A stretch of 64,000 bases of DNA from IMG/VR virus record IMGVR_UViG_3300037541_000797. The stretch is one strand, 5' to 3'. The position numbers and the translations under genes were made by a program. The first letter of the stretch is position 1. Every line of letters starts with the position of its first letter. This DNA is from an uncultured virus (IMG/VR IMGVR_UViG_3300037541_000797). Lineage: Duplodnaviria > Heunggongvirae > Uroviricota > Caudoviricetes. Positions 30,509 to 52,857 of this stretch are shown piece by piece. Below the pieces are notes generated by a model, which made no database searches, was not told the origin of the DNA, and was given only the letters and a program-made list of their open reading frames with translations.

Positions 30509-31450
30509 TTAGCCCTTATCGACGTAAGTGATCGATTTGGGGTAGTAGGGAGCAAAGCCACCAGATTTTGATTCTCCATTCACGATGAAGGCAAGATTTC
30601 GGGGCTCGGGCGGCAGCAACGTGAGCGGGAGGGAAATATGAAATTCCAGCTTCGCCGGATCTCGCTTGTAGTAGATCATCCGCTTGGCCGTCAGATTACC
30701 AAAGCTCTTACCCAAATCCAATTCGTTGATTGGCTCTACATTCTTGATCGTGCCGTTGGTTTTGAGGAAAAACTCCAGCACAGTGGTGTCACTGTTACTG
30801 CTTCTGGGGGTGGTGCTTACCCTGCGCCAATCGCTAAAGGGCAGCAGCAGCGTATCTGGAGTTTCGACCATTCCGGTCAAGCTGCCCTGGTAGGTAATGC
30901 CCTCACAAAGCAGGGAGTTCATCTGGTCGGGTGTGATGCTAGGCGCATCAAACCAACCGTCAGTGGCGGTGCCCGTGACCACCAGGCGGTCCACGGCCGG
31001 GTGATTGAAAAATCCTCGCAGTCCAGTGCCGGCATAGCCAAACAGGCAGGTGCGGTGCATCCGCTCCTCATAGGCCATGCGCATTGCGTCTATGCGGCGC
31101 TGCTGAAGCGGTATTTTGCTGAATTGCGCCTTTCGCACCTCATCGGTGGTGTATTTCGTTGCGCCACCAAACTGGCGAATAGTGTTGATAACCTCGCCGC
31201 GCTTTACATCAGACATGGGCAGGTCGTCGGCAGCATCGGCCACCAGATCAAAATCGCCTACGCGGTCGAATAGGTCATACTTATAGGTTTCGGCGCCTGG
31301 ATCCAATTCAAAGCTTACGGGGACGATCCGGGCGTAATGGTACTCCGGGTACTGTTTCTCAAATGAGCGGTTGAGATTCTGACGCAGTTCGTTTTCAAGA
31401 AAGATGCCGGCCGCGGCCTGGGCATCCTGTCGGGTTTGGCTGTAGCCCAT
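30509..31450 (-). CDS. Major capsid protein (DUF2184 family)
   Basis: GAETYKY..FDRVG...ADDLP...GLRGFFNHP...PDTLLLP; N-terminal RQD-A. Confidence 0.85.
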   Translation of the reverse strand: MGYSQTRQDAQAAAGIFLENELRQNLNRSFEKQYPEYHYARIVPVSFELDPGAETYKYDLFDRVGDFDLVADAADDLPMSDVKRGEVINTIRQFGGATKYTTDEVRKAQFSKIPLQQRRIDAMRMAYEERMHRTCLFGYAGTGLRGFFNHPAVDRLVVTGTATDGWFDAPSITPDQMNSLLCEGITYQGSLTGMVETPDTLLLPFSDWRRVSTTPRSSNSDTTVLEFFLKTNGTIKNVEPINELDLGKSFGNLTAKRMIYYKRDPAKLEFHISLPLTLLPPEPRNLAFIVNGESKSGGFAPYYPKSITYVDKG

Positions 31451-31495: not shown

Positions 31496-32062
31496 TTAGT
31501 CGGCGGTGAAGGTGAGCGCTGCGGGTGTGTTGATTTCCACCATCACCACACCATTAGCGGCGGCGGCTTTGCGGATGGCCCAGCCACCAGCAGCCAACAG
31601 CAGGCTGTTGCCGGCGCTAGCCGTGACACCCCAACGGCCAATATTGGTGCCGGATTTGAAATAACGCAGGGTGGTGCCCACGGGGATGGCTTCCCACGCA
31701 TCGAAATAGATCACGCCACGGGTGAGAATGTTCACGGCCCGGCCATCAGGGATGCCATCGGCATAGGCGGGCGATGAATCGGGGCCACCGCGCTCAAATG
31801 CGGCAGTGCGGGCGGAGATCCCCAGGATGGCCCCTGCCGTGGTGCGAGTAATCACCGAGTTGGGCAGCAGACCCGATCCATTGGCAGCCAGCGGCACGCC
31901 GTAGAGCAGCCGGCTGCCGGTTTCATTGTTGCCCGTGAGGGTGGTGGTGGTGGCGCTGGTGGCGATTTGGCCCGGCAAGCCACGATCGGCCTGGGCCGTG
32001 TAGCTGATTTGAGCGCCATCATCAACGGATGATGCGTTGGTGGTAAAAACAAGAGGGGACAT
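31496..32062 (-). CDS. Head decoration/cement protein
   Basis: GLPGQIA...YGVPL...AVNILTRGVIY; between scaffold and capsid genes. Confidence 0.7.
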   Translation of the reverse strand: MSPLVFTTNASSVDDGAQISYTAQADRGLPGQIATSATTTTLTGNNETGSRLLYGVPLAANGSGLLPNSVITRTTAGAILGISARTAAFERGGPDSSPAYADGIPDGRAVNILTRGVIYFDAWEAIPVGTTLRYFKSGTNIGRWGVTASAGNSLLLAAGGWAIRKAAAANGVVMVEINTPAALTFTAD

Positions 32063-32116: not shown

Positions 32117-33454
32117 TCAGGGCACGTGATTCATCAGGGGCTGCGTTGAGGCGGCGGCGGTGGCCGCCTTGTAGGCCGCCAAGCCGTCATTGCGGTTGCC
32201 GCCGGAGCGGCGGGCCTTGCCCAACAGCAGGGCCAGGCCTGTGGAGCTGTCCAGCGGCTGGCCATCGGCCCGCTCCGTCATGGCATCGAAGGTGGCGGCC
32301 ACGTATTCGTCCGATTTGCCATCCAACCGATCGGTTTCGTAGCCAACGGCATTCAGGGCCTCCAGCTGGATTTCACGGGCGCTTTTACCGGCGGAATCAA
32401 TCCGCTCGCCCGTCATGGCGTGGGCCTTCTCCAGCAGCTCCACCCGTTCGCTCACCAGCGCATTGAACTGGTCGGCATCCAGCCGCTCGCCTGGCTGATC
32501 AGCGATCTCGCCCTCCAGCTCATCCAGGCGGATGGATAGAGCGTCGAGGCGTCCAAGATCGGCTTCGTGCTGGGAGATACGGGCGGCCAGGGTCGAGCGC
32601 ACCCGGTCGTATTCAGCACGCGGAACGCTGTCGTTGCTGTCGCGGCGGCCGGGGGCCCGCCTGGTACGGCTTTTGGGCGCCACGGGGGGATCCATCACCT
32701 CCTCTTCCATCCCCTCCTCATCGGGGTCTTCTTCCATCTCCTCCTCCATCTCTTCCTCCATGACAGGTGGCATGGGCTTTTTGCCGTAGCCATCGCTGCG
32801 GCTGGAAAATTCAGTGCTCATGTGGTTGCCCTCCGGGGCAGATAGGGAATCAAATTGATGGCAGTCCACCGATTCGGCCCAGTCGGTGACATCGGCCGAA
32901 TCCAGGTGCAGGGCCACCCGGCGGCCATCGGTGGGTGCACCGGCGTCGTTGGAGCGCCCCCGGCGCGTCACCGCCAAGTGGTTGCCGGAGATGCGGCGTT
33001 GCACCGCGTCGTAGCGGGTGCCGTCTGGGGCGACGCCAGGGGTGCGGTCGATTTCCACCCGGTAGCCCACCGAGAGCTCCGTTGCATCGCCCCGCTCCAC
33101 CGCCTCAATCAACTCCCGATCGGTGATCGTGACGACACCGCTGGTGAACCCGTTGTCGTAGGTGACGTGAGTGCCGGTGGAGCCCCGCTGATATTCGCGG
33201 GCATTGTCCGGTGTCAACAGGGTGGGCGGATGCTCATGCGTGACCGGCAACCCTCCCAGCGAAAGGATGCTGTCGCGATGCGCAACCTCGCTTTCGGGGC
33301 GGTACTCAACCACCGTGCTGCCGTCCTGCCGGCGGTAGGTCTGGCAGCCAGTGCGCGAGAAATTGCCGCGGGCCTGCAGAAAGCCCTCTGGAGTTTTGCT
33401 CCAGTTCGGGCCGATTGCGCCCCGATCAAATCTCAGCTCATAGGCCACAGGCAC
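32117..33454 (-). CDS. Prohead protease-scaffold (DUF2213)
   Basis: TPEGFL...RTG.Q.Y...EYRPESEV...PVTHEHP...ELSVGY...GNHLAV..RGR; acidic coiled C-terminal half. Confidence 0.85.
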   Translation of the reverse strand: MPVAYELRFDRGAIGPNWSKTPEGFLQARGNFSRTGCQTYRRQDGSTVVEYRPESEVAHRDSILSLGGLPVTHEHPPTLLTPDNAREYQRGSTGTHVTYDNGFTSGVVTITDRELIEAVERGDATELSVGYRVEIDRTPGVAPDGTRYDAVQRRISGNHLAVTRRGRSNDAGAPTDGRRVALHLDSADVTDWAESVDCHQFDSLSAPEGNHMSTEFSSRSDGYGKKPMPPVMEEEMEEEMEEDPDEEGMEEEVMDPPVAPKSRTRRAPGRRDSNDSVPRAEYDRVRSTLAARISQHEADLGRLDALSIRLDELEGEIADQPGERLDADQFNALVSERVELLEKAHAMTGERIDSAGKSAREIQLEALNAVGYETDRLDGKSDEYVAATFDAMTERADGQPLDSSTGLALLLGKARRSGGNRNDGLAAYKAATAAASTQPLMNHVP

Positions 33455-35537: not shown

Positions 35538-36470
35538 TCAATCGAGCTCCACGTAGATGGTGGCCCCCTGGCGCCGCACGCGCCGCACGGTCTGCGCTGT
35601 GCCCCGAGGCAGGATCGATTCCCGCTCTTTGCGGTAGCCGGAGATGGCACTGATGCCGGTGATGGCCTGGCTGCGGCTCACCAACACGATCGCTGGGGCG
35701 GGGCCATTGGCCTCCGCATAGATGGCCGCCACTCGCCGGTCGTCGGAATAGGAGCCGTAACCCTGATCCGCAAATTTCTCACCAGGCCTGGCCTTGAGCA
35801 ATTGCTGGTACAGGCGTTCCATCTGTGGATCCTTCACGGCCAGGCCCCGATAAAACTGTGCCCCCTCTATGTTCTTGGGCAATTTTTGCAATGCGGCATC
35901 AAAATCTGCTGCCATGGCGGCGGTGGCCTTTTTTTGGCGGCAGCTGGCCGGCTGTCGCAGGCAGCGGTTTAGCGCTGATGCCGCCCGAGGCCCTCTGGTG
36001 ATGGCGCTGTAATCGAAAACCGCTTGGCGTTCTGCCGCGGCCAGGTTGGTGGCCTGCTGCAGCTGATCCCGCTGCTGGCGCTGTTGGGCGGTGGGCAGCG
36101 GGAAGGCCTGCTTAATCTCCGCCGCCGTGATCGCCGCCACTGGAGTGCGCTGGGGGGCCCTCGCCTGGCGGCTGCTTCGCAGCTCGGTTGCGTGCTGGCT
36201 GCGCCGCTGTTGCAGGTTGGCCGCCATGGCCACCGCAGCCGCCTGCCCGGGCACACCTAACCCTCTGGGTGCCACCTCGCCCCGGGCCAGCTGCTGCAGC
36301 CGCTTGAGCCGCTCCTTGCTGATCGAGCTGCCAGGCCTGGCCCTGCACTCCTTCTGAAGGCTGATGCAGCTGTTGCCGCAGCTGTAACCGGTCTGGCAGC
36401 GCTTTCTGGCCGCATCGATACGGGCCCCAAGGGCGGCAAACCGGGCATTGAGGTCAGTGCTCACCGCCAT
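35538..36470 (-). CDS. ADP-ribosyltransferase (R-S-E, VIP2/C3-like) with RxD/Cys leader
   Basis: FYRG, GYGSYS and ERE motifs; N-terminal RIDA..CQTGYSCGNSCISLQKECR. Confidence 0.85.
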   Translation of the reverse strand: MAVSTDLNARFAALGARIDAARKRCQTGYSCGNSCISLQKECRARPGSSISKERLKRLQQLARGEVAPRGLGVPGQAAAVAMAANLQQRRSQHATELRSSRQARAPQRTPVAAITAAEIKQAFPLPTAQQRQQRDQLQQATNLAAAERQAVFDYSAITRGPRAASALNRCLRQPASCRQKKATAAMAADFDAALQKLPKNIEGAQFYRGLAVKDPQMERLYQQLLKARPGEKFADQGYGSYSDDRRVAAIYAEANGPAPAIVLVSRSQAITGISAISGYRKERESILPRGTAQTVRRVRRQGATIYVELD

Positions 36471-39007
36471 GAATCAGCCCTTGGGCAGTTGCCGGCGGCG
36501 GCGGGCTTCACTGCTGAGCCGGTCTGGCACTTCCGACGCAGAGCGTCGATCCGGGCTTCCAGGGAGTCGGCCCAGGGCTGCTTGCGCAGGCCTACGGCCT
36601 CCAGCCCCGCCGGCACGGCATCGACCCGGTGATTGGCGGCTGCGGCCTGGCGTGCCTCCTGGATCAGCCGCTGAATCCGCTCTTCCCGGCTGTCGGTGCG
36701 GCGCGTCATGCCGGCAAAAGTGTTGGTGCCAACGGCTTCCATCAGCTCATCGAAGGCCGGCGCCATCTTCGCGATCTGCTCCTTGGTGGGCCACAGGGGG
36801 CTCTCACCGCCGATGCCCGAGAGGTAGGTGTTTTCCTGCCCCTTGCTCCTCAACTTGTGCTGCACGTACCGCTCGAAGGTCCTGGCGAACACCTCACGGC
36901 CTGATGTCCAATATTTCCACTGACCGGTCGTTGGCTTGATGCCATGACCGTAGAGGCCATCTTCCAGGGTCCGGGGGTAGTCGCTGTCCTCATAGATGGC
37001 CTTGCGCACACCAGCCATGGCTTTCCAGACAGGATCGTTTTCTTGGCTGCTGGTGATGCCTCTGGTGCTATCCCAGAACTTGTCGCTTGTTTGCTCGCTG
37101 AGGTAAATGTCGCCGGTCTTTGCAAACGATTGCCCTCGTGGAGTCCGCGCCCCTATGTAGTCGTCGAGCGCGTGTCCCCATTCATGGGCCAAGGTGCCGA
37201 CGCCGTTCTTGCGGGTGATGTTGATCACCTTTGTGCCCGGTTCGTAGTGGGCTGAGGCCCGTCCCTTGCCCCTGGCTCCAAAGGCCAGGCCCAGCTGACC
37301 GTCCAGGGAGATGGCCCGATCGGGAAGGCCGGTCACGTCCGCCAGGTCCACCAGGGCCTCTGCGGTCTTGCGCAAGTGGTGGGCCCGCTCATCGTCAGTA
37401 ACGCTGTTGCCAAACTGCAGGCCCCTCATCCCCATGCGATTGGCCAGCACCGCCGTGGATCCGGCCGGCGTGTCATCCACACCCAGGGCGCGGCCGCCGG
37501 TGCGTTTTGCCCGCTTCACGTAGAGGTCCGCAGGGTTGATGGTCACCCCGCCACGCTGCACCCCGGTGACCTTGTCGATCGACGCGCCACCCACAACCTC
37601 CTCCGTGGCGTTGCGCATCACATCGGCCAGCTCGGCAAGGCTCTTCCCGCCGTTGGCCTTTCTGAGGCGGAGGCCAAGGGTGTTGATCTGCCCAGTGATG
37701 GACGACTTGGCGTAGCCACCTTGGCTCGCCTTCTTTGTGAGGTCCACCAGGGAGTTGGCCAGAGGGTTGAAGTTATCAGCGGTGCCCTGGGATTGATCGC
37801 CCCTGATGGCCCTAATCCGATCGACGGTCGCCCTGGCAATTTCCGAAAGCATGTTGCGGGGATTTGCGTCGTCCCGGCGCTTGTCGATGATGCCCTTCAC
37901 CTGCTGCAGGTGGTCGTAATAGAGCTTGCGCATCTCGGCCGGCGTCTTTTTGCCGCCGATCTGGGACCGGTTGTAGGCCGAGAAGGCTTTGTCTGTGTAG
38001 GGCTGCGCAGGGAAGGCCTTCAGCGCCAAGTGGCCGGCCAGGCGGGTGAGGTAGTTGGCGTTGGTGATGCCTTCCGTTAGATCAAGGGGTTCCGCCTTCA
38101 GGAGCTTGTCCCGGGTCACCAGGGCCTCGGCCGTCCCCTCTGCTTCTGCTTCTGCCAGGGTTCGCCAGGCGTTGCGCTTGTGGCGGGCGGAGCCCTTCAA
38201 ATCCTCTCCGACGTTGCCCACGGCCGAGGCTCGGGCAAACTCATAGTCAGGGTCGCCTGCTTTGGCGGCCCGATCGGCCTCTCCCCTGGGCGTGCCGGCC
38301 GGGGCCATGCCGGTGCTGGTGTTGGAGGGGGGCGTAGCTGCCTTGGCTGCTGCGGCCGCGGCCGCCTGGGCCTTCTCAGCCGCCGCCTGTTGGCGGGAGC
38401 TCTTCAGCAGGGCTGCCTTCTCGCCCCGTCGTGCGCCGATCGCCCCGGCCAGCTCACCGGCCTCCTTTTGCCGCACCGGGGCGATCCCCCGCTGGGAAGA
38501 GGCCCCGCCAGCAACAAGTTCCCGCAGCCGCTTCAGCCGCTCTTTCCCGATGCTGCTACTCGGCCTGGCCCGGCATTCTTTGCGCAGGCTGATGCAGCTG
38601 TTGCCGCAGCCATAGCCCCTGCTGCAGCGCTTTTTGCCGCCAGCCCCTGGAGCATCAAGACGCAGCCCTGACGATCGGGTCGCCAGGAAACCAGCGCTGC
38701 GGGCCTCCCATTGCCCCTGGCTCAGCCCATCCCAGGCGGGGCGATAAGCGATTTGAGTGGCGTCACAGCGGAACTTGAACACCAGCCCATCGGCTGCCAT
38801 CTGCCCCGCCACCAGGCCCGGCCGGGGCCGATCCCAGCTCAACACCGCAGCGCCAGGCAACAGCTCCCCCAGCGCCTGGGTCAGCAGCTGCACCACTGGA
38901 TCCGCCGATCGCCCAACGGCCGCGGCCACCGGTGCTCGATGCGCCGCACTGAAGCTGGCGGAATCCAGTCGCGCCAGGCGGGCTTCCAGCTGAGCAAGTG
39001 TCAGCAA
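36461..39007 (-). CDS. Polyvalent protein: RxD/Cys leader + zincin metallopeptidase + LPD1-like domain
   Basis: GLQFGN...LGLAFGARG...AHYEP...INIT..NG.GTLAHEWGHALD; YWTSGREVFARTFERYV. Confidence 0.8.
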   Translation of the reverse strand: MLTLAQLEARLARLDSASFSAAHRAPVAAAVGRSADPVVQLLTQALGELLPGAAVLSWDRPRPGLVAGQMAADGLVFKFRCDATQIAYRPAWDGLSQGQWEARSAGFLATRSSGLRLDAPGAGGKKRCSRGYGCGNSCISLRKECRARPSSSIGKERLKRLRELVAGGASSQRGIAPVRQKEAGELAGAIGARRGEKAALLKSSRQQAAAEKAQAAAAAAAKAATPPSNTSTGMAPAGTPRGEADRAAKAGDPDYEFARASAVGNVGEDLKGSARHKRNAWRTLAEAEAEGTAEALVTRDKLLKAEPLDLTEGITNANYLTRLAGHLALKAFPAQPYTDKAFSAYNRSQIGGKKTPAEMRKLYYDHLQQVKGIIDKRRDDANPRNMLSEIARATVDRIRAIRGDQSQGTADNFNPLANSLVDLTKKASQGGYAKSSITGQINTLGLRLRKANGGKSLAELADVMRNATEEVVGGASIDKVTGVQRGGVTINPADLYVKRAKRTGGRALGVDDTPAGSTAVLANRMGMRGLQFGNSVTDDERAHHLRKTAEALVDLADVTGLPDRAISLDGQLGLAFGARGKGRASAHYEPGTKVINITRKNGVGTLAHEWGHALDDYIGARTPRGQSFAKTGDIYLSEQTSDKFWDSTRGITSSQENDPVWKAMAGVRKAIYEDSDYPRTLEDGLYGHGIKPTTGQWKYWTSGREVFARTFERYVQHKLRSKGQENTYLSGIGGESPLWPTKEQIAKMAPAFDELMEAVGTNTFAGMTRRTDSREERIQRLIQEARQAAAANHRVDAVPAGLEAVGLRKQPWADSLEARIDALRRKCQTGSAVKPAAAGNCPRADSWR

Positions 39008-39094
39008 TGGCGGCAGGTTTTAACGCTGCGCCAGTCTGCGGCAATCTGCTGCGGTGCAAGCGATCAACGCCTGCGGCCTGGCAGGCCGTCTGAA

Positions 39095-40237
39095 TCAGCC
39101 TAGATCCGCTCCTTGCGGCTGTCGGTGTGGCGGCACTTGCGCTCCGAACTCCGGCAACTGCAATGCCGCATCAACAAACAGCCGCTCGTCTTCATTTTCG
39201 ATGCTATCCATCCTCTGAGGTTTTGCAATTTTGCCTCCCTTCACCAATGCAATGCCGAGCGGCTTATCATTAGCCTTTGAGCCACTTGGGAACTGAAAGC
39301 CTAAGGCTTTGTACATTTTCATGCGTTGCTCCCCTAAGCCGTCAGAAGCGAACGCGCTACATGTTACCAGGGAGCCATCTGGCAAGCCTTTGAGTATTTC
39401 GGCTGCCTGGCGGAATACGGCTCTAGCTACGTCTGCCCTATTAGAAGTTGACAGATTGGTGCGGCGGCGAGACCAGCCGACGGTATCACGGCTTGGACCC
39501 GTCATGAAGTCTATGTTTATGGCTTTAATTGATGGGGATTGACGATCGCTGCTGGATAGCTCAATCAAGGGTTTAACCCCAACTTGTCTGCCAAGGGCTG
39601 GGACTCTGCTGTGGATATCGTATAGCGCTCCCGGCCACCACTCAGCCTCGGGATCGGTTATCGACTCACGGCGCTGGGCTGGCTTTTTAAGTGAAATATC
39701 ACCCGTTTTGCCTTGAATTTTGGCGTAGATTGATACGGGTTTACCTGCGGCGTCTTCTGTTTCTATTTTGATTTCTCGGGTAATGCTATCCTTGGTCGTT
39801 CTTGCCTTTAATACGTTGATTTTTGTTTTTGACTTTTGATTTTTGGCTTTTTCTTCACTGGTGGCTTTTGGTGGCGCCGCGTTCTTGGCCTTTTTTTGCT
39901 GAGCGATAGGCTCTTTGCCACCACTGCCCTTGGCCATGGCAGCCGCGCTGCTTTGGCCAGCGGCCGGCAACATCAGTAGCTCTTTGAGTCGGGCGGCCTT
40001 CTGCGGGTTGCCCTTGACCCTGCAGGTGCGCCCCTTGGCGATGCAGGTATTACCGCAGGCCAGCCCCCGCACGCATTTTTTGGGCGCATCAAAGCGCACC
40101 AGGCCTTGCTCTGCGGCCAGAAACCCATCCAGCCGGGCACCGCTCCAGCCGTAGAAGGCCGTCAGGTAGCTGCGCGATGCCGCCAGGTGCTGCCGGTCAA
40201 AGGCGGCATCGGGATCAAGGCGGGAGGCGGTGGTCAT
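39095..40237 (-). CDS. RxD/Cys leader protein with GNAT-like C-terminal domain
   Basis: Shared 127-aa leader; RMKMYKALGF resembles GNAT motif B; C-terminal RMDS. Confidence 0.6.
   Translation of the reverse strand: MTTASRLDPDAAFDRQHLAASRSYLTAFYGWSGARLDGFLAAEQGLVRFDAPKKCVRGLACGNTCIAKGRTCRVKGNPQKAARLKELLMLPAAGQSSAAAMAKGSGGKEPIAQQKKAKNAAPPKATSEEKAKNQKSKTKINVLKARTTKDSITREIKIETEDAAGKPVSIYAKIQGKTGDISLKKPAQRRESITDPEAEWWPGALYDIHSRVPALGRQVGVKPLIELSSSDRQSPSIKAINIDFMTGPSRDTVGWSRRRTNLSTSNRADVARAVFRQAAEILKGLPDGSLVTCSAFASDGLGEQRMKMYKALGFQFPSGSKANDKPLGIALVKGGKIAKPQRMDSIENEDERLFVDAALQLPEFGAQVPPHRQPQGADLG
39857..40237 (-). repeat. Leader-coding direct repeat, copy 1 (~381 bp)
   Basis: Near-identical to 40974..41354 and partly to 41848..42162. 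Confidence 0.9.
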
Positions 40238-40368
40238 CGATCAGAGGGCGAAACAGGGGGCGGGGGGGGCTTGTCTTCCTTGGCGGGCAGAATTTCAAAG
40301 CCCACGTCCTGCATACGCCGGCCTAAGCCGCTTTTGGCCGTTGAATTTTCTTTCCTGTTGTCAGGCAT
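40234..40368 (-). CDS. 44-aa RMQDxG protein downstream of ART-2 (candidate immunity/inhibitor)
   Basis: Manual translation MPDNRKENSTAKSGLGRRMQDVGFEILPAKEDKPPPPPVSPSDR; starts 2 nt after the ART stop, ATGA-coupled to the next gene. Confidence 0.7.
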   Translation of the reverse strand: MPDNRKENSTAKSGLGRRMQDVGFEILPAKEDKPPPPPVSPSDR

Positions 40369-40370
40369 GG

Positions 40371-41354
40371 TTAGTCAAGCTCCACGATGAGTGTGTTTCC
40401 TTCTTTTACAATACGACGGATGGTTTGCTCTGCGCCACGAGGTAGGATGGCCTCCTGCTCGTCTGGCATTACGGAAAGCATATTGATTGGCGTCAGACTC
40501 TTGCTGCGGGTTTTGAATAATATGCCAGCGGAGCGATTAAATAGGAATTCTTTCGCCTTGTTTTGATCTGCCGAATAGGAGCCATAGCCCATGTCTCTCA
40601 GTCTTTCCCCTGGCTTGGCTTTTGCTAGTTTTTCATACAGGGCCTGAGCGGCGCCTGGAGTTGTATCGCCAAATGCAGCCGCAACGCCTCTGTAATACTC
40701 AGCGCCGCCTTCATTCTTTGGCAGCTTTGCCAGCGCGGTGTCAAGCTCTTTCGTATACCGCTTCGTCTCACGAGGATTTAAACAGTTGCGCGGCTTTCTT
40801 AGGCAATCATTGGTTTCCTCGTAACCCCTCGCATCGTCGCGGACGGCATCGGTGTAATCAGCTATGGCTTTTTTATCCTTCGCCGTCAACCCCGCGCTTA
40901 ACTGTGCCTTATCACGAGCCTCTTTAGCATTTTGTTCGCTAAGTTTTTTAGGCGCAGCCTCCTTGGCTTTCTGACTGGTGGCTTTTGGTGGCGCCGTGTT
41001 CTTGGCTTTTTTCTGCTGAGCGATAGGCTCTTTGCCACCACTGCCCTTGGCCATGGCAGCCGCGCTGCTTTGGCCAGCGGCCGGCAACATCAGTAGCTCT
41101 TTGAGTCGGGCGGCCTTCTGCGGGTTGCCCTTGGCGCGGCAGGTTCTCCCTTTGGCGATGCAGGTGTTGCCGCAGGCCAGCCCCCGCACACATTTTTTGG
41201 GCGCATCAAAGCGCACCAGGTCTTGCTCTGCAGCCAGGAAGCCATCCAACCGGGCACCGCTCCAGCCGTAGAACGCTCGCAGGTAGCTGCGCGATGCCGC
41301 TAGGTGCTGCCGGTCAACGGCGGCATCGGGATCAAGGCGGGAGGTGGTGGTCAC
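40371..41354 (-). CDS. ADP-ribosyltransferase (R-S-E) with RxD/Cys leader
   Basis: YYRG, GYGSYS, EQE; paralogue of 35538..36470 (LPKN, KPGE, ILPRG, VELD shared). Confidence 0.85.
   Translation of the reverse strand: MTTTSRLDPDAAVDRQHLAASRSYLRAFYGWSGARLDGFLAAEQDLVRFDAPKKCVRGLACGNTCIAKGRTCRAKGNPQKAARLKELLMLPAAGQSSAAAMAKGSGGKEPIAQQKKAKNTAPPKATSQKAKEAAPKKLSEQNAKEARDKAQLSAGLTAKDKKAIADYTDAVRDDARGYEETNDCLRKPRNCLNPRETKRYTKELDTALAKLPKNEGGAEYYRGVAAAFGDTTPGAAQALYEKLAKAKPGERLRDMGYGSYSADQNKAKEFLFNRSAGILFKTRSKSLTPINMLSVMPDEQEAILPRGAEQTIRRIVKEGNTLIVELD
40974..41354 (-). repeat. Leader-coding direct repeat, copy 2
   Basis: 121/127 aa identical to copy 1. Confidence 0.9.
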
Positions 41355-41376
41355 TGTTCAGGAGAAGGCGGGGAGT

Positions 41377-42183
41377 TCAGCGAAACGCCAACAGCGAATC
41401 ACGCATTTTGATCAATCGCTCGAAAACTTTGCGGTCACCGCCCACGTCTGGATGGTGAGTTTTGGCTAGCTGATTAAAAGCTTGCTTGATGTCTCGCGGC
41501 GTAGCCTTTTTGGGGTCTAGGTTGAAAGTGTGCCAGGGCCGGAAGTTCTTCATTACATCAACGCCCCGAATAACACTGCCGCCATCTTTCAGGTTGCGCT
41601 CAGAGGCTGGCACCCCAGCAAATTCCCGGTGCAGCTTGGCCCATGTCTCCCGTTTTTTAAAGTCAATTTTTATGCCTTTGCCGGTCGCCTGCCGGGAGTC
41701 AGCGTCGCCAATCGCCATCAGGAAATCTTTGTTTGTCTTTAGCTCTTCAACGGTTTTTACTTTGAAATAGTCAAGAACGGGCTTTTGTAATTGGGCGATG
41801 GTTTCGCGTTTGGCAGGCTTGCCGGCAGGCTTGGCCGGTGTGCTTGCCTCTTTGCCACCACTGCCCTTGGCCATGGCCGCCGAGCTGCTGCCACCAGCAG
41901 CCGGCAAGGCCAGCAGTTGCTTGAGTCGGGCGGCCTTCTGCGGGTTGCCCTTGGCCCTGCAGGTGCGCCCCTTGGCGATGCATGTATTACCGCAGGCCAG
42001 GCCCTTCACGCACTGCTTGGGCGCATCAACGCGCACCAGGTCTTGCTCTGCAGCCAGGAAGCCATCCAACCGGGCACCGCTCCAGCCGTAGAAGGCCGTC
42101 AGGTAGCTGCGTGATGCCGCCAGGTGTTGGCGGTCGAAGGCGGCATCGGGATCGAGGCGGGAAGTGCTGTAGGAGAAGGGCAT
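41377..42183 (-). CDS. RxD/Cys leader protein with C-terminal DnaJ J-domain
   Basis: PWHTFNL...ATPRDIKQAFNQLAKTHHPDVGGDRKVFERL (HPD motif). Confidence 0.85.
   Translation of the reverse strand: MPFSYSTSRLDPDAAFDRQHLAASRSYLTAFYGWSGARLDGFLAAEQDLVRVDAPKQCVKGLACGNTCIAKGRTCRAKGNPQKAARLKQLLALPAAGGSSSAAMAKGSGGKEASTPAKPAGKPAKRETIAQLQKPVLDYFKVKTVEELKTNKDFLMAIGDADSRQATGKGIKIDFKKRETWAKLHREFAGVPASERNLKDGGSVIRGVDVMKNFRPWHTFNLDPKKATPRDIKQAFNQLAKTHHPDVGGDRKVFERLIKMRDSLLAFR
41848..42162 (-). repeat. Leader-coding direct repeat, copy 3 (~315 bp)
   Basis: SRLDPDAA...MAKGSGGKE shared with copies 1 and 2. Confidence 0.85.
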
Positions 42184-42186
42184 GGC

Positions 42187-42384
42187 CTAGCGGTTGGTGA
42201 TCGGTTTGTAGCTCACGTCGTCACCCTTGATTTTGTAGTCGTAGACCAGTGCGCCTGAGCGGAAACGACCACCAACAGCACCTGTTGCTCGATTGCTATT
42301 GAGAGTTGTGATCGTGATGGGCGCACTTAGCAGGTTTTCAATCAGATCTTTAACGATCAACGCCATTTCTTGCTTGGCATCCAT
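42187..42384 (-). CDS. Small protein similar to the N-terminal domain of 36461..39007
   Basis: GAVGGRFRSGALVYDYKIKGDDVSYKP vs GLVAGQMAADGLVFKFRCDATQIAYRP. Confidence 0.65.
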   Translation of the reverse strand: MDAKQEMALIVKDLIENLLSAPITITTLNSNRATGAVGGRFRSGALVYDYKIKGDDVSYKPITNR

Positions 42385-42419
42385 GGGCTGAGCCGCCGCA
42401 ACTGCACCATTCTGACCGG

Positions 42420-42725
42420 TTAAGCCGCTGCGGATTTTGTGCGGTCTGGGAGCTGGCTTTTTGGTGAATCTGGGGCTGGCTCGCGGCTAGCCCCGACATT
42501 GGGTTCAGGGCTGGGCTCGGGGGCAAGCGATCTTGCGCCGCTGGCGATGGCCGACAACTGATCGCCCAGGTCCTCAGAGCTGTGCGAGGCAGGCGCCAAT
42601 TCGACGGCCAGGGCCAGGGCCTGACGCGCCTCCACCAGGCCATGGAAGGGGAGCCAGCGATCGGCCAGACGCTGAAGTGCATAGGCCAGATCGGGGCCAA
42701 TGCTGTCGGGGAGCTGATCGGCCAT
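42420..42725 (-). CDS. Hypothetical protein
   Basis: ATG 42725 preceded by TAGCCTGG motif. Confidence 0.5.
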   Translation of the reverse strand: MADQLPDSIGPDLAYALQRLADRWLPFHGLVEARQALALAVELAPASHSSEDLGDQLSAIASGARSLAPEPSPEPNVGASREPAPDSPKSQLPDRTKSAAA

Positions 42726-43020
42726 GGGCGGTGCGGAGCGGTTGCGCCAGGCTAGGGCTGGCAACGACGCAGAACGGGCCGAATTTGCATTCTGATTGCG
42801 GTATGGTTGGCCGGTCTGTTCATCACGCCATGCGTCGATCCCGTTTGCCGCGCCCCAGGCAGCGCCACCGCCAGCCCGATCCCCTGCGAGAAGCCCTGCT
42901 GATCACCCTGCCTGTTTTTGTGGTGGTGATCGCCCTGATGGGATTTTCCATCCATCGCGACTACCACGCCCTGCGCCAGAGCCAGGCGTTCAGGTCGGCC
43001 GCCACAGCAGGGGGCTGGTG

Positions 43021-43281
43021 ATGAAAGCTGCGATTGGCCCCTCCCTGGTCACCACCCCACCGGAGCAGCTGTGGTGGGTGCGCTGGCCGGCCCCAGGCGA
43101 CGCCTGGTATTTCGTGCGTGATCGCCACGATTCCGGCATTTGGTTGATCACCAAAGTTCAGCCTGCTCCCGTGTCGCGGCTGGAGGCGTCCGAGGTGCAA
43201 TCGATGGTGGCCAGGCATATCAGCCCAGCACCGGTGCTTGTGCCGGCGCCATCTGGCTGCGTCCTGAATCCAGTACAATAG
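43021..43281 (+). CDS. Hypothetical protein
   Basis: ATG 43021 (MKAAIG) coupled to an upstream small membrane ORF ending at 43021. Confidence 0.45.
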   Translation: MKAAIGPSLVTTPPEQLWWVRWPAPGDAWYFVRDRHDSGIWLITKVQPAPVSRLEASEVQSMVARHISPAPVLVPAPSGCVLNPVQ

Positions 43282-43356
43282 ATAAAGCCAGTTGCTGGCT
43301 CGTTTGCCCCGGTGGCGGCTGGAGAGGTCCGGCCCCATCTACCACCCAACACCACC

Positions 43357-43920
43357 ATGTCGCTCATTCAATTGAAAAAGCGCTCCGGCGTGACGATTCG
43401 GTTCAACTGCGATCTCACCGATGCAGACGCCCGGCAGATCGTGCTCCAGGCCCATGCCGCCCACCAGCAGGTGGGAGATTTTGCAATCAAACTGGCTACC
43501 CAGCGTGCCGGACTTTCGCCGGCTCAATCCGGCTGGCTGAAATATCTGGCCATGGAAATCAGCGGCCAGCTGCGCACCTCCACATCCGGCCCCTGGGCCT
43601 GGTTGCTGGATAGCGGTTTTGCCAACGATCAAATCCGTATTCTGCGGCGCAGCTCCAGCCAGGACCGCTGCGCCTGGGTGGAGCTGCGCCGCGATACCAG
43701 GTTTATGCCACTCAATACAGCCCAACACTTTTGGAAGTTTGTGGGCCGCATCACCCCTGACGGGGGGTTTGAGCTCTGCTCCAATCTGCGCCAGTTGATC
43801 TCGGGAGAGGGCCGCAGTGCCATGGCCGCCATGTTCCCAGCCGAAGAAGATGCTCTGCGCGATGAGGCCAAATGGCTGCAGGTTCAATCCAATCTCCTAA
43901 TGGAGGCCCTGAAGCGATGA
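43357..43920 (+). CDS. Hypothetical protein
   Basis: ATG 43357 (MSLIQLKK) within ORF 43312..43920. Confidence 0.6.
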   Translation: MSLIQLKKRSGVTIRFNCDLTDADARQIVLQAHAAHQQVGDFAIKLATQRAGLSPAQSGWLKYLAMEISGQLRTSTSGPWAWLLDSGFANDQIRILRRSSSQDRCAWVELRRDTRFMPLNTAQHFWKFVGRITPDGGFELCSNLRQLISGEGRSAMAAMFPAEEDALRDEAKWLQVQSNLLMEALKR

Positions 43921-44181
43921 AAAAGGCTGCCACGCTCATCCCAGTGGGTCAGCAGGTATTGGCGGCCCTGCGGACCCATGATTCGCTATCTCCCTCGGTA
44001 ACCCCATGAAAACCCACAGGGCTTTGGCCCTTTGCATCAGCTCCACCATGGCCATGACCGCCTGCTCAGCCCCGCCGCCATGCTCCGCAATGACAACTGA
44101 CCCACAAGCACAAGGCGCAGTTATCAGGGTGCTAGTTGCCCTGGGGATCTGCGGCGCAATATTAATCTTGTGGCACTAATC

Positions 44182-44910
44182 ATGGACTCACGTTTTCGCG
44201 TTGACTTAATCGCCGCCACCCCCCAACCCCAGCAGGTCTGTTGGGCGGCGATGCACCAAGACTACAGCGAGGGCTACGTTTTTGACGACCGCGCCAACTG
44301 GCCTGAGGAAAGCCGCGCTGGCGAGATCTGCGTCAAGCGCCTATTGGCCGGCGAGAGGGGCCACTACGGCCCCCTGGAACACGGCCAGATCGTACTCAAC
44401 GTGGGATGGTTTCCCCATTCCGCGATGCAGCAGGCCCGTACCCACCGGGTAGGAGTTAGCTTCGATTGTCAAAGTCTACGTTATACGGGGGAGCGTATCT
44501 GCAAAGCCGCCACAGGCGAGGTGGACCTTGAAGATGTGTTTTACATTAGGCCGTCGGGGACTTACAGAGACCCAAACTCCGGCAAGGCTTATGAATACAC
44601 AGCCCAAAAGCGCAACCTTGATGTTAAGCGCTGCCACGAAGCCGCCATTCACTACCGCTACAGTGTCGGACTTGGCGAACCGCTTGAGCAGGCCAGGGGG
44701 TTGATTCCATTCGACGTGCGCCAACACTTCGTGGTGAGCTTCAGCCTGCGGGCCTTCCTGCACTTCCTCGACCTGCGGGCGAAGCTCGACGCCCAGGACG
44801 AAATTCGCCAGCTTTGCGATTTGATGTGGCCCCACCTGCAGAGCTGGGCACCGGAGATCGCCGCCTGGTATGAGGCGATCAGGCTGCGCAAAGCGAGGCT
44901 GGCGCCGTGA
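44182..44910 (+). CDS. thyX: FAD-dependent thymidylate synthase
   Basis: GHYGPLEH, QARTHRVGVSFDCQSLRY, LHFLDLRAKLDAQDEIR; cyanobacterial type. Confidence 0.95.
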   Translation: MDSRFRVDLIAATPQPQQVCWAAMHQDYSEGYVFDDRANWPEESRAGEICVKRLLAGERGHYGPLEHGQIVLNVGWFPHSAMQQARTHRVGVSFDCQSLRYTGERICKAATGEVDLEDVFYIRPSGTYRDPNSGKAYEYTAQKRNLDVKRCHEAAIHYRYSVGLGEPLEQARGLIPFDVRQHFVVSFSLRAFLHFLDLRAKLDAQDEIRQLCDLMWPHLQSWAPEIAAWYEAIRLRKARLAP

Positions 44911-45491
44911 AAGAGCGGCCAATTCTCTATTCGGCGCCAATGGTCCGCGCTATTTTAAACAACAGCAAGACACAAACGCGGCGCGTTGTTAAATTTCGGC
45001 ACGACGACGGCTTCCCCGCCAACCCTTACGGCATACCTGGCGACCGTTTATGGGTGCGGGAAACTTGGCGTGTCAGCAGCGCACACAACGATTTGCGACC
45101 ATCTCGAATTCCCAGGGGCACGACTGTTGAATATTTGGCCGACGGGCCAGGGATGCTTGAGGGCAAAACTCGCCCTTCCATCTTCATGCCCCGATGGGCT
45201 TCTCGAATCACGCTGCAGATCACTGACGTGAGGGTGATGCGGCTGCAGGAAATCAGCTCTGCCGACGCCAGGGCAGAAGGGATCGCCGAGCTGCTGCTGC
45301 AGGCTGGCCAGGCTGGCGCCTGGTGGTCCGCTGGTCCCACGCCGGCGCTGCACGGCCGCAGCCCTATTGCCGCATTCCAGCGGCTGTGGGAATCCATTCA
45401 TGGTGATGGTTCCTGGCTCGACAACCCCACGGTTAGGGCCATTTCATTTCAGTTAATCCACTCAGTTAATCCACTCGCAATCTTAACATGA
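44907..45491 (+). CDS. Conserved phage protein (ASCH/PUA-like)
   Basis: KERPILYSAPMVRAIL..KTQTRR...PYG.PGDRLWVRETW...PSIFMPRWASRITL.ITDVR. Confidence 0.75.
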   Translation: MKERPILYSAPMVRAILNNSKTQTRRVVKFRHDDGFPANPYGIPGDRLWVRETWRVSSAHNDLRPSRIPRGTTVEYLADGPGMLEGKTRPSIFMPRWASRITLQITDVRVMRLQEISSADARAEGIAELLLQAGQAGAWWSAGPTPALHGRSPIAAFQRLWESIHGDGSWLDNPTVRAISFQLIHSVNPLAILT

Positions 45492-45578
45492 CTAAACAAG
45501 ACGAGGGGCATCGATGATGATTACTACACCCACCTGGACACTTCTGCCGCATCTTAACCTTCCCGCCACGGAGCAGCC

Positions 45579-46064: not shown

Positions 46065-46239
46065 GCGCCGCTCACGTCATCCAGCCGGTGCCGGTGATCG
46101 AGCGGCTGCCGGGGCCGGAGGATTGCGATATTGCCAAGGGGCAAACGTTCTGCGGATTCTGCCCCGCGCATCATGCCTAACGATGCGCTACACGGGGAAT
46201 GGTGACGGATTGTTAACTGTCCTGGTAATGGGGCGGCAG

Positions 46240-46295: not shown

Positions 46296-46304
46296 GAGCC
46301 AGCA

Positions 46305-49292: not shown

Positions 49293-50822
49293 TCAGAGCT
49301 CGGCCACCTCGCGCACGATCGCGTCGTAGGCGGCTTGGGCTGCTGGATCCAGCCAGCCGCGCCTGGGGCACCACACCGGATCGCCTGTGGGCCAGGGGCT
49401 GGCGGCCAGGTTCAGCGGATCCTCACCCCCCAGCCCCTGGCGGGGCACGGATTGGGGCAACTGTTTGCGCTCCATCAGCGGGTAATCGCGAGGGCTGAGG
49501 CGCTCATCACCCGCACCACCCACCGGCCGCAATTTGGCACCCTTGCCATTGGCCCGGAAGAAATGGCCCAGGGTGCTCTTGCTATGGCGCTTGGCCTGGG
49601 CCTCCCACCGCTCGGCTGGTTTATCCGCCAGGTCGTTTTCAATTGCCAGCGATTCCAGGCTCACCGGTGTTTCCTGGCAGCGGCAGTTGGGATGAATCGG
49701 GCTCTTTACTGAGCCGATGTAGTAAATGCAGCCAGAGCGGGGGGCGCAGAACTCACAGGTGCGCTCATCCAAGGTGGCCAGGTATTGCACAAAACCCACC
49801 CGCAATTTGCGCCAACAGCGCTCCTGGGCTTCCCCGGAGGCCATCAGGGTTTCGGTGCGGGCGATGGTTTCCGCCCGATTTTGAAACGCCTCGTTGATCG
49901 TCGGGATCCGTTCTTTCAGATTTTTTGCCAGGGTTTTGGAGTCCGGCCCCTGGGCCATTTGGCGGGCGGTCTCAAACGACACGCTCTCCCCCCACTCGCC
50001 CCACCATTTGGCGTAATAGTGTTTCGCCGCGGCCACGTGTTGATCGGTCGCTGCATCCCGCTCCCGGCGGTAGTTTTCTGATAGGCCTTTGAAATCCCGC
50101 TCGGCGGCCACCACCGCCCCGGAGAGATCAAAGAGGCGCGTCAGCCGCTGGCCCCCCTGATACTGGCGATCGGGGCCGATGCCAGGGCCTCCGCTCGCCT
50201 GGGGCCCTGTGGGTCCGGTGCCCGGAGCTGGGGCGGTGGGCCGCCCGCCGGGGGGGCTGATGCCACCACCAATCAGAGGCCCCGCTGAAGATCGGGGGGC
50301 AGTGCCGGGCAGCGCTGGCGATGCTGGCGCCGCCGGCGCTGCCTCCTGGCCTGGCAGTTGGCGAATGGTGCCATCGGGATCGAGCTGGGCCATGGCCGGG
50401 GCCAGATCTGCCTGAATCAGCTGCAGTCCGTAATTGGTGCCCAGGTCCTGGGCCCGATCGAACAGCTGGCGCAGCTCCCCGTTCAATCGCTCCAGCCGCT
50501 CGGGGCTGAGCGGCACGGCATTGAGCACCACCATCAAATCTTGAATCAGCTGGGGCTGCAGCAGCAGCCCTGCCTGGTTTTTTTGCAACGGCTCAATAGG
50601 AACCGGCCCTTCTGGTGTGCTGCCCAGAAAGGCGCCGGGGCTGTTGGCGGGGTTGTAGTCGGGCTGATCGGCAGCCTTCTCCAGCAGCTCAAACACCCGC
50701 GCCACGGTATCCCTCAGCGCTGCCTCAAAAATGCGGCCGATGCGCTGGATTGCTGGGTCTTCCAGGCCCCGCAAAGCCTCGCTGAGCTGTTCGGCCAGCT
50801 GTTCGCGGCGATCAATTCCCAT
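49293..50822 (-). CDS. Head morphogenesis protein (MuF/SPP1 gp7 family)
   Basis: RAETIARTET...YLATLDERTC..C...PIHPNCRC. Confidence 0.88.
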   Translation of the reverse strand: MGIDRREQLAEQLSEALRGLEDPAIQRIGRIFEAALRDTVARVFELLEKAADQPDYNPANSPGAFLGSTPEGPVPIEPLQKNQAGLLLQPQLIQDLMVVLNAVPLSPERLERLNGELRQLFDRAQDLGTNYGLQLIQADLAPAMAQLDPDGTIRQLPGQEAAPAAPASPALPGTAPRSSAGPLIGGGISPPGGRPTAPAPGTGPTGPQASGGPGIGPDRQYQGGQRLTRLFDLSGAVVAAERDFKGLSENYRRERDAATDQHVAAAKHYYAKWWGEWGESVSFETARQMAQGPDSKTLAKNLKERIPTINEAFQNRAETIARTETLMASGEAQERCWRKLRVGFVQYLATLDERTCEFCAPRSGCIYYIGSVKSPIHPNCRCQETPVSLESLAIENDLADKPAERWEAQAKRHSKSTLGHFFRANGKGAKLRPVGGAGDERLSPRDYPLMERKQLPQSVPRQGLGGEDPLNLAASPWPTGDPVWCPRRGWLDPAAQAAYDAIVREVAEL

Positions 50823-52857
50823 AGCTATCGCACCTCACACCCATGGCGATCAAAGCGAGTCCATCCAGCCGCCTCACCCGGGCGCTGGCCCCTGCCGCGG
50901 TGATCACCAGCTCGGCATCGTTCACACCCACCACAGCGCACCACTGCCCGCCAGCTCCCAGCACCTCCCACAGCCCCTCGCTGTCAAAACCCACCGCTGC
51001 ATTCAGCCCCGCAATCGGCTGGCCATAGGGGCCCACCAGGGCGGCGGAGCCATCGGCCCGCACCTCCAACGGCACGCCCGCCACCACCCGCCGGCCGGTG
51101 ATTCGAGCCCCATCGGCCCGCACGCCGGACGGCCGGCCGCGGCCTCGCGATCGTGCAGGGCCAGGCTTGGCAATCCGCTGGGCGATGGCCGCAGCCAGGG
51201 CCTGGCCGTCATCCGGGATGGGCTCTTCCTCCGGTGCGGAGGTGTCTTTTTGCTGCTGCGCAACCTCTTCATCGCAAGCCGAGCAACAGCCATCTTCTCG
51301 GGGGTCGCTGGCGCTTGCCAGGCCATCACCCCTGGCCGCGGCGGCTTGCTCCTCTGGCGTGAGCTCAGCGGTGCCTGCCGCCGCTGGTGCTGCTGGTGTT
51401 GTGGGTTCAGCCGGGGTATCGCCGCTGGCGGGGTCGCCGCCGGCTGGATCTGCTGATTCAAGATCACCACCGAAATCGGGTCCGGTGCCCTCATCGGGCT
51501 GGGGGATGGAGCCATCTGGCTCCCGATTAAGCAGGGTGGTCTCCAGGGAGAATTTAGCGGCGCTGAATCGGGCCAAGGCCACCTCCACGGGCGTAAGCAC
51601 CTGCTCCCGGATGTAGGCGGTGTCTGTGGTTGCCTGCTTGGAGCGCAAATCGGCCTCCTCTGAATCGGAGAGCACAAAGGTGGGGTAAAAATCGATTTTC
51701 CAGTCTTCCGGCAGCTCCATGGGGGCGGACCCGCGGGAACAGGCCGCCAGCAACTCGTAAAACTGGCGCAGGGGGCGGTCCAGGTGATCCTGCTGCTGCT
51801 GGGCCGTCTCCATTGCAAAAGCGGCATCTTCTGATCGGCCATCAGCACCCAGTCCGGAGGGGGAAGCACCCCAGAGCTTGGTGTGGGGGATGCGGCTGGC
51901 CCCCTGCACCTCCGTTTCCAATTTGCCGATCACCGTATCGATGCCCCCCAGGGATCGGGTGATCCAGGAAACGTCCTCGCCGTCGGCATCGATGGCAATG
52001 CCTCCGAGCACAGACCGGCATTTGCCGATTAGGTCCAGCCGGGCCTGAATTGCCGCCTCCTTTCCATTGGCCACCATCTGGCCTAAACCCTTTATTTTTT
52101 GCACAAAAAGGCTGAAATCGTCGAGGATGGCCGATCCGCTTTTCTGGCCGGTTTCATATCGTTTAAAAACCTCCCAGAGGCTCTGCAGCACAGACACGCC
52201 CCACCAGTTGTTCTGGCCTTTAAGCCCGTGGGGCAGGGGGTCGCCGTCAAAGCGCAGCAAACGGGAACTATGAATTGGCACCCCCATTTCCTTTTCATCC
52301 ATTCCCGCTCGCTTCAAATCGTCGTCTTGATATACAACAAATTGATAACGCTCCGGAGCGCCCACGCCAGACCAACCAGGGGCAGGCCAAATGCGCCAGC
52401 GATCCATTGCGTACAGGCCCCGAATCGAGCGCAGCCGTTTGGGATCCACGGGCTCGTTGATTGGTAGCCCGTCGTCGAGAATTAACACAATCACCGCCCC
52501 GCCATGGTGGCGTGCCATGCGCAGGGCCTCGCGCACATGGTCTCGAATGCCCAGGGCTTCGCCTGCAGATACCAGTTTGTCGAGGCGCTTTTTTTGGGCC
52601 TCGTTCACCTCGCCTCCCACTGTGATGCCCCAGCCGGCTCTCGTGGCTTCACTGGCAACCAGGTCCACCACCCGGCGGCAAAGCCAACTGCTCACGTAGA
52701 GGTTGTTCAGCTCTTCCTCCTGCAACAAGCTGACTGGAGCTATGGCCGTGTAGCTGGAGCGGTCACGGCTGGTGCCCATGCGCGTCAGCGCATTGATAAG
52801 CACGCCATCGTTGCGCTCCTCTGGCAGCGGCAATTGATCGGACATGGGGGATGGCAC
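50812..52857 (-). CDS. Portal protein (DUF1073 family) with long C-terminal extension
   Basis: LYVSSWLCRRVVD..A.EATRAGW...IHSSRLLRF.G...WWGVSVL...IPHTKLWG.SPSG. Confidence 0.88.
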   Translation of the reverse strand: MPSPMSDQLPLPEERNDGVLINALTRMGTSRDRSSYTAIAPVSLLQEEELNNLYVSSWLCRRVVDLVASEATRAGWGITVGGEVNEAQKKRLDKLVSAGEALGIRDHVREALRMARHHGGAVIVLILDDGLPINEPVDPKRLRSIRGLYAMDRWRIWPAPGWSGVGAPERYQFVVYQDDDLKRAGMDEKEMGVPIHSSRLLRFDGDPLPHGLKGQNNWWGVSVLQSLWEVFKRYETGQKSGSAILDDFSLFVQKIKGLGQMVANGKEAAIQARLDLIGKCRSVLGGIAIDADGEDVSWITRSLGGIDTVIGKLETEVQGASRIPHTKLWGASPSGLGADGRSEDAAFAMETAQQQQDHLDRPLRQFYELLAACSRGSAPMELPEDWKIDFYPTFVLSDSEEADLRSKQATTDTAYIREQVLTPVEVALARFSAAKFSLETTLLNREPDGSIPQPDEGTGPDFGGDLESADPAGGDPASGDTPAEPTTPAAPAAAGTAELTPEEQAAAARGDGLASASDPREDGCCSACDEEVAQQQKDTSAPEEEPIPDDGQALAAAIAQRIAKPGPARSRGRGRPSGVRADGARITGRRVVAGVPLEVRADGSAALVGPYGQPIAGLNAAVGFDSEGLWEVLGAGGQWCAVVGVNDAELVITAAGASARVRRLDGLALIAMGVRCDSYGN

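Follow-up and report, generated by a model that had tools for sequence, protein, structure and literature searches.

How phages choose the proteins that they carry in their heads is known in detail mainly for T4. The T4 internal proteins and Alt, and head proteins of SPN3US and phiKZ, are made as precursors and cut by a prohead protease of the gp21 fold that also cuts the capsid and portal proteins; according to the available sections of PMC10052503 and PMC12991175 the cleavage is made after Glu (I/L-x-E, A-x-E), and in T4 the signal is a propeptide that is removed (PMC10052503). A repertoire of ADP-ribosyltransferase (ART), zincin MPTase, LPD1, GNAT, kinase and DdrB-like ParB domains, encoded in late or head gene contexts, is described for the phage polyvalent proteins, which are predicted to be packaged and injected and to be processed by an embedded MPTase (PMC5512222, available sections). 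Effectors fused to MuF, portal or protease proteins join a constant virion-addressing part to variable enzymatic C-termini (PMC9503650, available sections). Here we describe an array of five tandem genes in a 64,000-nucleotide stretch of DNA from an uncultured virus of the Caudoviricetes (IMG/VR IMGVR_UViG_3300037541_000797; the whole stretch is called the window). In each gene an R-x-D-A motif and a small basic element with four cysteines, the Cys tag, together the leader, precede a different enzymatic domain, the cargo.

The array would work like the T4 internal proteins and Alt, with the cargo of the polyvalent proteins (PMC5512222, PMC9503650, available sections). An Alt-like ART is among the cargo, but the putative cut site is [RK]-x-D|[AS] rather than a site after Glu, and the shared element would remain on the mature protein. 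Unlike the propeptides that carry the T4 capsid-targeting signal (CTS), the pro-regions differ from gene to gene and end in Asp, and the shared Cys tag lies downstream of the site. The domains of the array come from the ART, MPTase, LPD, GNAT and kinase repertoire of the polyvalent proteins, with only a weak case for GNAT, and cargo 2 matches phrog_616 and carries LPD1; the array also lies on the late strand between MuF and the protease, although adjacent to neither. Whereas the polyvalent proteins are proposed to be processed by an MPTase that they contain, every unit of the array carries a Cys tag and a putative head-protease site, and the main text of PMC5512222, as far as available, contains no occurrence of 'cysteine', 'DUF2213', 'DnaJ' or 'linker'. 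Compared with the fused effectors (PMC9503650, available sections), the constant part is a Cys microdomain of ~45 residues, found in stand-alone genes or repeated in polyproteins. Tags do occur inside such fusions in relatives. MuF polymorphic toxins are a MuF-fused effector system, whereas MuF in the window is a separate gene with neither tag nor toxin, no MuF match was found in the five cargo genes and no immunity gene was identified. The system is not strictly MuF-independent, as had been predicted, since in relatives tags are also fused to MuF, portal or protease.

The virion kinases and NMNAT of phage S-CBWM1 and unassigned virion proteins of phage CL131 carry the tag or its second type, whereas the available passages and table describing these proteins mention no shared tag; two of the S-CBWM1 kinase starts are annotated within or downstream of it. 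The Cys tag may mark enzymes for delivery to the host, as a kind of label that has not been described. As a candidate tag readable from sequence, it joins unexplained virion proteins of CL131 and S-CBWM1 and seven PaV-LD genes, and this link to cultured cyanophages makes it testable in existing systems. The motif and two published capsid N-termini also provide a candidate specificity for the DUF2213 protease; since head proteases are reported triggers of CBASS defence (PMC12991175, available sections), the cut motif would matter beyond assembly. If the proposal is true, injected arsenals could be read from sequence and the ~45-residue tag could serve for loading reporters into the heads of cyanophages.

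Five tandem genes share an RxD motif and a Cys tag

The five genes lie on the minus strand at 35538-36470, 36461-39007, 39095-40237, 40371-41354 and 41377-42183 (cargo 1 to 5). In every one, as had been noted, R-x-D-A is followed by the Cys4 motif, an RLKxL helix and a cargo domain. A six-frame scan of the window matched the leader motif in these five genes only, and there were 0 matches in 60 triplet-shuffled windows. The leader is not N-terminal as first proposed, for the Cys motif starts at residue 25, 128, 55, 55 and 58 of cargo 1 to 5, respectively. Its predicted place between MuF and DUF2213 was found to be right, but the array adjoins neither gene: a gap of 6.9 kb, mostly plus-strand genes, lies on the MuF side and one of 2.1 kb on the DUF2213 side. 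In run X2 the unique parts of the five genes were all present at similar depth (448-474). Contigs from public runs break at three leader repeats, so that the order of cargo 3-5 is not bridged by them. Promoter and terminator scans gave matches at chance level only.

RxD is a candidate cut site of the DUF2213 head protease

The window's DUF2213 prohead protease-scaffold (32117..33454, minus strand) has the invariant H75, S128 and H159, an acidic scaffold and 6 RxD[AS] sites, and its model matches the T4 prohead protease gp21 (E 8e-5, probability 1.00). The PF09950 major capsid protein (30509..31450, minus strand) has RQDA at residues 7-10 (31421-31432), which aligns with KQDA, the processed K-x-D|A of the solved T1-like capsid. 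RxD[AS] was observed 9 times with 2.0 expected in 5 head proteins and 14 times with 2.1 expected in the 5 cargo proteins, compared with 2 and 6.3 in 22 other window proteins, and 750 times with 68 expected in the 120 DUF2213 homologues listed, every one of which has 3-8 sites; the sequences in these counts, and in the comparison of tags with head type below, are related, and Fisher p values overstate the significance. The motif had been taken as part of the leader, but it also occurs in the scaffold, the capsid protein, the portal end and after cargo domains.

The N-terminus of the mature TLS capsid protein was determined by Edman degradation (PMC11447400, available sections) and lies directly after K25-N26-D27 of the capsid gene product (L064:15087-16061). 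Placed on this record, it means that 27 residues are removed, compared with the 45 surmised in that source. The electron cryomicroscopy model of the T1 capsid begins at residue 27 (PMC11945409, available sections), directly after K24-Q25-D26. Further capsid proteins start with RLDA (PaV-LD), RMDA (CL131) and RMDE (S-CBS4). Based on the gp21-like fold, the enrichment of the motif in scaffold, capsid and cargo, and the TLS and T1 N-termini after K-x-D, RxD|[AS] is most probably the cut site of the DUF2213 head protease. The cut itself is documented for the TLS and T1 capsid proteins only; for the other proteins the assignment follows the shared motif and the gp21 fold.

Other boundaries speak against this assignment. 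The E217 capsid is one residue off, its model starting at N66 after D64-S65, and the Pa193 portal and scaffold boundaries do not fit (PMC10329688, PMC11456595, available sections), nor does the T1 portal boundary. No [RK]xD[AS] site (0) was found in the E217 scaffold, and some RxD[AS] motifs of the window fall within folded domains (positions 121 and 147 of the protease, 119 of the capsid protein and 172 of cargo 4). No description of DUF2213 cleavage specificity was found in the literature searched, where subscription papers were poorly covered, and the available parts of PMC4070988, PMC10052503 and PMC12991175 contain nothing on the tag or on DUF2213 specificity. The number of deposited phage records with a DUF2213 match is 1370.

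The motif before the tag follows the head type

In DUF2213/DUF1073 loci (n=34), 43 of 44 distinct tags follow RxD. In contrast, none of the 10 tags in Mu-type loci or genomes (n=4) does; 6 follow [DE]F[AST] and 4 follow neither. These counts leave out the secreted-protein loci L039, L041 and L043, untagged records, and L042, which was rejected as a tagged locus because it was a false positive. The protease-scaffolds mostly carry the same motif as precedes the tags in their loci. In one locus (L051) the capsid protein is DUF2184-like but the portal and protease are of the Mu type, and the motif is DFA, which suggests that the motif goes with the protease rather than the capsid. Of 51 tagged loci or genomes, 39 have a marker (portal, protease or Mu G/MuF), and 12 have no protease or portal in the available DNA. 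Three fusions were also seen: a tag and J-domain on a Mu-type protease (L034:2237-4486), two tags in a Mu-type portal fusion (P0052) and a tag after MuF (L040:3373-5010).

The leader is made of two separable parts

The leader, proposed as a single unit, consists of an RxD|[AS] site, which changes with the type of protease, and a basic Cys tag. As predicted, the tag matches no named family: over the tag region there was no Pfam or NCBIfam match, no PDB sequence match and no Foldseek match, and an Atlas search gave no usable match. The model used for Foldseek, a short hairpin and a helix, has a predicted local distance difference test score (pLDDT) of 62. Among PHROGs, only phrog_33618 (annotated as unknown) and a stretch of phrog_16619 (minor head protein) were matched at E below 0.001. 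No description of the tag was found in the literature searched, with the same poor coverage of subscription papers.

A profile of the tag matched 312 representatives (E up to 0.001), of which 150 were listed. Of the listed matches, 148 were classified: RxD precedes the first tag in 105 and [ED]F in 4, neither is present in 16, and the other 23 are small and signal-peptide-like, a class assigned by a crude rule. In non-secreted proteins among the matches listed, RxD lies within 25 residues of 290 of 335 distinct motifs compared with 584 of 4400 random windows, although the query contained RxD, which inflates this share. The predicted association with DUF2213/DUF2184 heads and diverse C-termini was borne out in part: homologues lie in phage head modules and their cargo is diverse, but the tag is also found alongside Mu-type heads, and its motif in secreted proteins that are not from phages.

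Cys1 and Cys3 are gained or lost together in 256 of 256 motifs (219 with both, 37 with neither, 0 mixed) found with a pattern that required Cys2 and Cys4. Where lost, they are replaced by W, H, F or Y. This joint gain and loss suggests two cysteine pairs. The charges given are +8 to +10 for the tags, which are basic, and -26 for the acidic scaffold, and the isoelectric point of the mature cargo is 9.7-10.6. Cultured cyanophages with tag matches are PaV-LD (7), CL131 (7) and S-CBWM1 (5); tblastn of P0089 and three other leaders found no further convincing tagged phage among cultured phages.

A second tag with two cysteines, C-x-[RK]-x-D-G-x2-Y-G-T-x-G-x-C, was seen in the same position in relatives (L058:16754, L059:20978, L003:8202, L027:2178-3410, L032:13003), after RxD in DUF2213-type loci and after DFT in S-CBWM1. 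It is not present in the window. Two-cysteine matches in shadow frames of MuF and other genes were ignored. The four-cysteine motif also occurs in an unnamed family of small bacterial signal-peptide proteins (P0054, P0081, P0086, P0124, P0140, L039, L041, L043, L066), often in tandem, with ten copies in one protein of 527 residues, and one phage copy lies within an SH3-annotated protein.

Tagged homologues are found in virions

In CsCl-purified virions of CL131, 23 of 149 proteins were detected (PMC6293099, supplementary table 5, as available). All four tagged CL131 open reading frames (ORFs; 4/4) are among these proteins. The top score is that of gp048, and in spectra per residue gp045 (0.27) matches the capsid protein (0.28). 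For S-CBWM1, virion presence has been reported for three kinases (APH, ChoK and Rio) and for NMNAT (PMC10665884, a secondary citation of Xu et al. 2018, available sections). The three virion kinases begin at the tag without a pro-region, and the virion NMNAT starts with the second tag in the form C-x-R-P-D-G-x2-Y-G-T-x-G-x-C, preceded by DFT. A PknB-like kinase of the same phage has no tag and is not in the virion list. A distance of 9-14 kb or more separates the tagged S-CBWM1 genes from the portal gene, and position in the genome explains less in this phage. Virions of phi24B contain an abundant polyvalent protein with LPD1 (bioRxiv 10.64898/2026.04.10.717836, available sections). Tagged homologues were thus detected in virions of CL131 and, at second hand, of S-CBWM1, and the cargo of the window is probably packaged in its virion.

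The annotated starts of the Rio-like and ChoK-like S-CBWM1 kinases (L046:15007-15073; L059:17831-17888) omit all or most of the tag, which lies in frame upstream with an ATG. Two further tagged S-CBWM1 proteins of ~520 residues (L059:32376-33962; L046:11388-12950) are alike and look HNH-like by eye; they have no Pfam match.

A proposed cargo-loading scheme and its alternatives

Taken as a whole, a cargo-loading scheme for the head of a temperate-type freshwater cyanophage appears reasonably probable. Each cargo would be a late product in which a pro-region, RxD|A, the basic Cys tag with its helix, a linker and the enzyme follow one another. The precursors would join the prohead core, most likely via the basic tag, with the acidic scaffold as first partner. 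The DUF2213 protease, as homologues support, would then cut [RK]xD|[AS] in scaffold, capsid and cargo and remove the pro-regions, and in relatives would cut polyproteins into units of tag and enzyme. To judge from homologues, the tagged proteins would stay in the mature virion. The cargo may then ride the packaged DNA into the host and modify host proteins by ADP-ribosylation, acetylation, proteolysis and DnaK recruitment, with kinases and hydrolases in relatives. Repeated leader DNA, a step supported by the rearrangements described below, would let cargo be swapped, fused or deleted. Within this scheme, we infer tag-driven loading, cargo cutting, DNA binding, injection and the host targets. 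Only tentatively can it be extended to the proposal that a portable cargo code of two parts is common to cyanophages, in which a head-type-specific protease site ([RK]xD|[AS] with DUF2213, [DE]F[AST] with Mu-type proteases) precedes interchangeable Cys tags of at least two families, and these tags suffice for loading any enzyme and carrying it into the host.

Several observations weigh against the scheme. Virion presence and the cut are known for homologues only, and the window phage from its genes alone. The detection of the tagged CL131 proteins is confounded, since the products of 11 of 12 genes in the block gp038-gp049 were found whether they have a tag or not; the tagged genes are flanked by neck genes and the tape measure gene, so that head and tail are not told apart. 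The S-CBWM1 evidence is second-hand, and PMC10665884 (available sections) itself warns of co-purification. The Cys motif of the 23 signal-peptide-like proteins, which are not from phages, means that it is not intrinsically a capsid signal. Many of the tagged loci are near-identical phages, and the tag was not found in the related DUF2213 cyanophage S-CBS4.

The pro-region upstream of RxD might itself be the capsid-targeting signal, as in the T4 CTS, leaving the Cys tag to act later as a DNA-binding or ejection handle. T4 propeptides do target proteins to the prohead core (PMC10052503, available sections), and one family of pro-domains (~115 distinct sequences) has a tag within 75 residues downstream in 101 of 117 matches, in both head types. 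This reading is nevertheless unlikely, given that no pro-region precedes the tag in PaV-LD ORF080 or in the three virion kinases of S-CBWM1, all of which begin with it, and that the pro-regions of the window are of three unrelated kinds (19, 50-53 and 118 residues). It would be quite improbable that the tag is a disulfide-bonded anchor displaying enzymes outside the virion or in the tail, with the cell surface as their place of action. The substrates needed by ARTs, kinases, NMNAT, GNAT and J-domains are cytoplasmic, and the cargo has its processing motif in common with the internal scaffold; what fits such an anchor is the joint gain and loss of Cys1 and Cys3, as expected of disulfide pairs, the occurrence of the Cys motif in secreted proteins, and the CL131 cargo, which includes alpha/beta hydrolases and lies beside the tape measure gene.

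The cargo could also consist of late cytoplasmic effectors that merely co-purify with virions, RxD being a scaffold-binding or decayed motif that stays uncut in cargo. Basic proteins such as these stick to DNA and particles, plus-strand genes separate the array from head genes, and the system is missing from S-CBS4. Capsid-like spectral counts in CsCl-purified CL131, the fusion of tags to portal, MuF and protease, and a motif before the tag that follows the type of head protease all argue otherwise, and we regard co-purification as decidedly unlikely. Loading of tagged precursors into the prohead, followed by cutting at RxD, is the reading that we prefer.

Leader repeats and cargo shuffling

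Three leader repeats of 300 nucleotides lie at 39857-40156, 40974-41273 and 41794-42093, the last two 94% and 81% identical to the first, and a second leader pair of 120 nucleotides at 36289-36408 and 38517-38636 is 77% identical. In a 95% identical relative (L030) the leader of cargo 5 is joined to the body of cargo 3, with the junction inside the leader, and cargo 4 and the J-domain body are missing. Another relative (L002) has the leader of cargo 2 (89.5% nucleotide identity) before a different cargo. Across the mapped loci a given cargo class may have a gene of its own or be part of a polyprotein with up to four tags, and order and number vary; polyprotein relatives with two or more effector domains have 2-5 tags. 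Other cargo in relatives includes kinases, alpha/beta hydrolases, LRAT-like and Zeta-toxin-like domains and an M90 zincin. Recombination between leader repeats is the simplest cause of this shuffling, against which it counts that L030 may be an assembly collapse. L001 and L028 do not count as independent relatives, since both are 100% identical to the window.

The pro-domain family also occurs alone, in PaV-LD ORF083 and in the window, where a stand-alone pro-domain of 65 residues (42187..42384, minus strand) lies in the reading frame of cargo 5, from which a single TAG and a single codon separate it. It belongs to the same family as the N-terminal domain of cargo 2. In L032 and L033 the pro-domain and cargo 5 are fused, and the window has either a split gene or read-through.

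Domains of the five cargo genes

The predicted ART, zincin plus LPD1 and J-domain were recovered, and the GNAT call is only a weak lead. Cargo 1 (310 residues; 35538..36470) has a 19-residue pro-region, RIDA at 36411-36422 and the Cys4 tag at 36345-36398; cargo 4 (327 residues; 40371..41354) has RFDA at 41202-41213 and the tag at 41139-41192. Both match the PF03496 ART family (E-values of 8.7e-6 and 7.2e-11 in the two genes) and have the R-S-E catalytic motifs of an Alt/VIP2-type ADP-ribosyltransferase intact: R208, YGSYS 238 and ERE 282 in cargo 1, and R222, YGSYS 257 and EQE 299 in cargo 4. Cargo 4 also matches phrog_802 (Alt-like, E 2.7e-5).

Cargo 2 (848 residues; 36461..39007) has a pro-domain of ~60 residues, RLDA at 38651-38662, the Cys4 tag at 38573-38626, and two effector domains, a zincin with HEWGH at 37172-37186 and LPD1 (E 5.5e-13), followed by more RxD[AS] sites; its phrog_616 match has an E of 2.8e-44. 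One recognised effector domain is present in each of cargo 1, 3 and 4. An LPD5-like domain suspected in cargo 2 had no Pfam support at E up to 10. The C-terminus of cargo 2 (36461-36571) is a truncated leader copy with RIDA and the first cysteine, probably the scar of a lost cargo.

Cargo 3 (380 residues; 39095..40237) has RFDA at 40085-40096, the Cys4 tag at 40022-40075 and a closing RMDS at 39203-39214. It has no Pfam or NCBIfam match, and its putative GNAT fold is a weak lead from comparison with GNAT clusters (Atlas feature score 0.91, 146 features in common, TM 0.48). Cargo 5 (268 residues; 41377..42183) has RVDA at 42022-42033, the Cys4 tag at 41959-42012, an unknown domain and a J-domain with HPD at 41446-41454 (E 1.8e-4, below the Pfam gathering score). 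The ratio of nonsynonymous to synonymous substitution (dN/dS) was 0.26 for cargo 1 and 0.045 for cargo 5 (both compared with L002), 0.32 and 0.15 for cargo 2, and 0.65 for cargo 3, from 16 changes only. Purifying selection acts on the cargo regions of genes 1, 2 and 5.

Surrounding genes and host

The head genes of the window are on the minus strand and comprise terminase, DUF1073-type portal, MuF, DUF2213, cement and the PF09950 capsid gene. The PF22758 cement protein (31496..32062) has no RxD[AS], and the MuF minor head protein (49293..50822) has neither tag nor RxD[AS]. The portal (50812..52857) has a long C-terminal extension (50812-51400), in which an acidic linker is followed by a small domain that ends close to RCDS and may be another cleavable cargo. 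The head module is split between MuF and the array by an island of mostly plus-strand genes (42400-49290), including ThyX and an N6/N4 methylase, together with an HNH gene, and a serine recombinase gene lies at 60089.

The closest cultured capsid protein is that of Synechococcus phage S-CBS4 (47%), and tagged relatives are present in Cyanobium assemblies. At least half of the array's sampled words were found in 6 runs from 5 studies, all labelled lake or freshwater, one of the runs being a possible source. These findings point to a freshwater picocyanobacterium as the probable host of the window phage.

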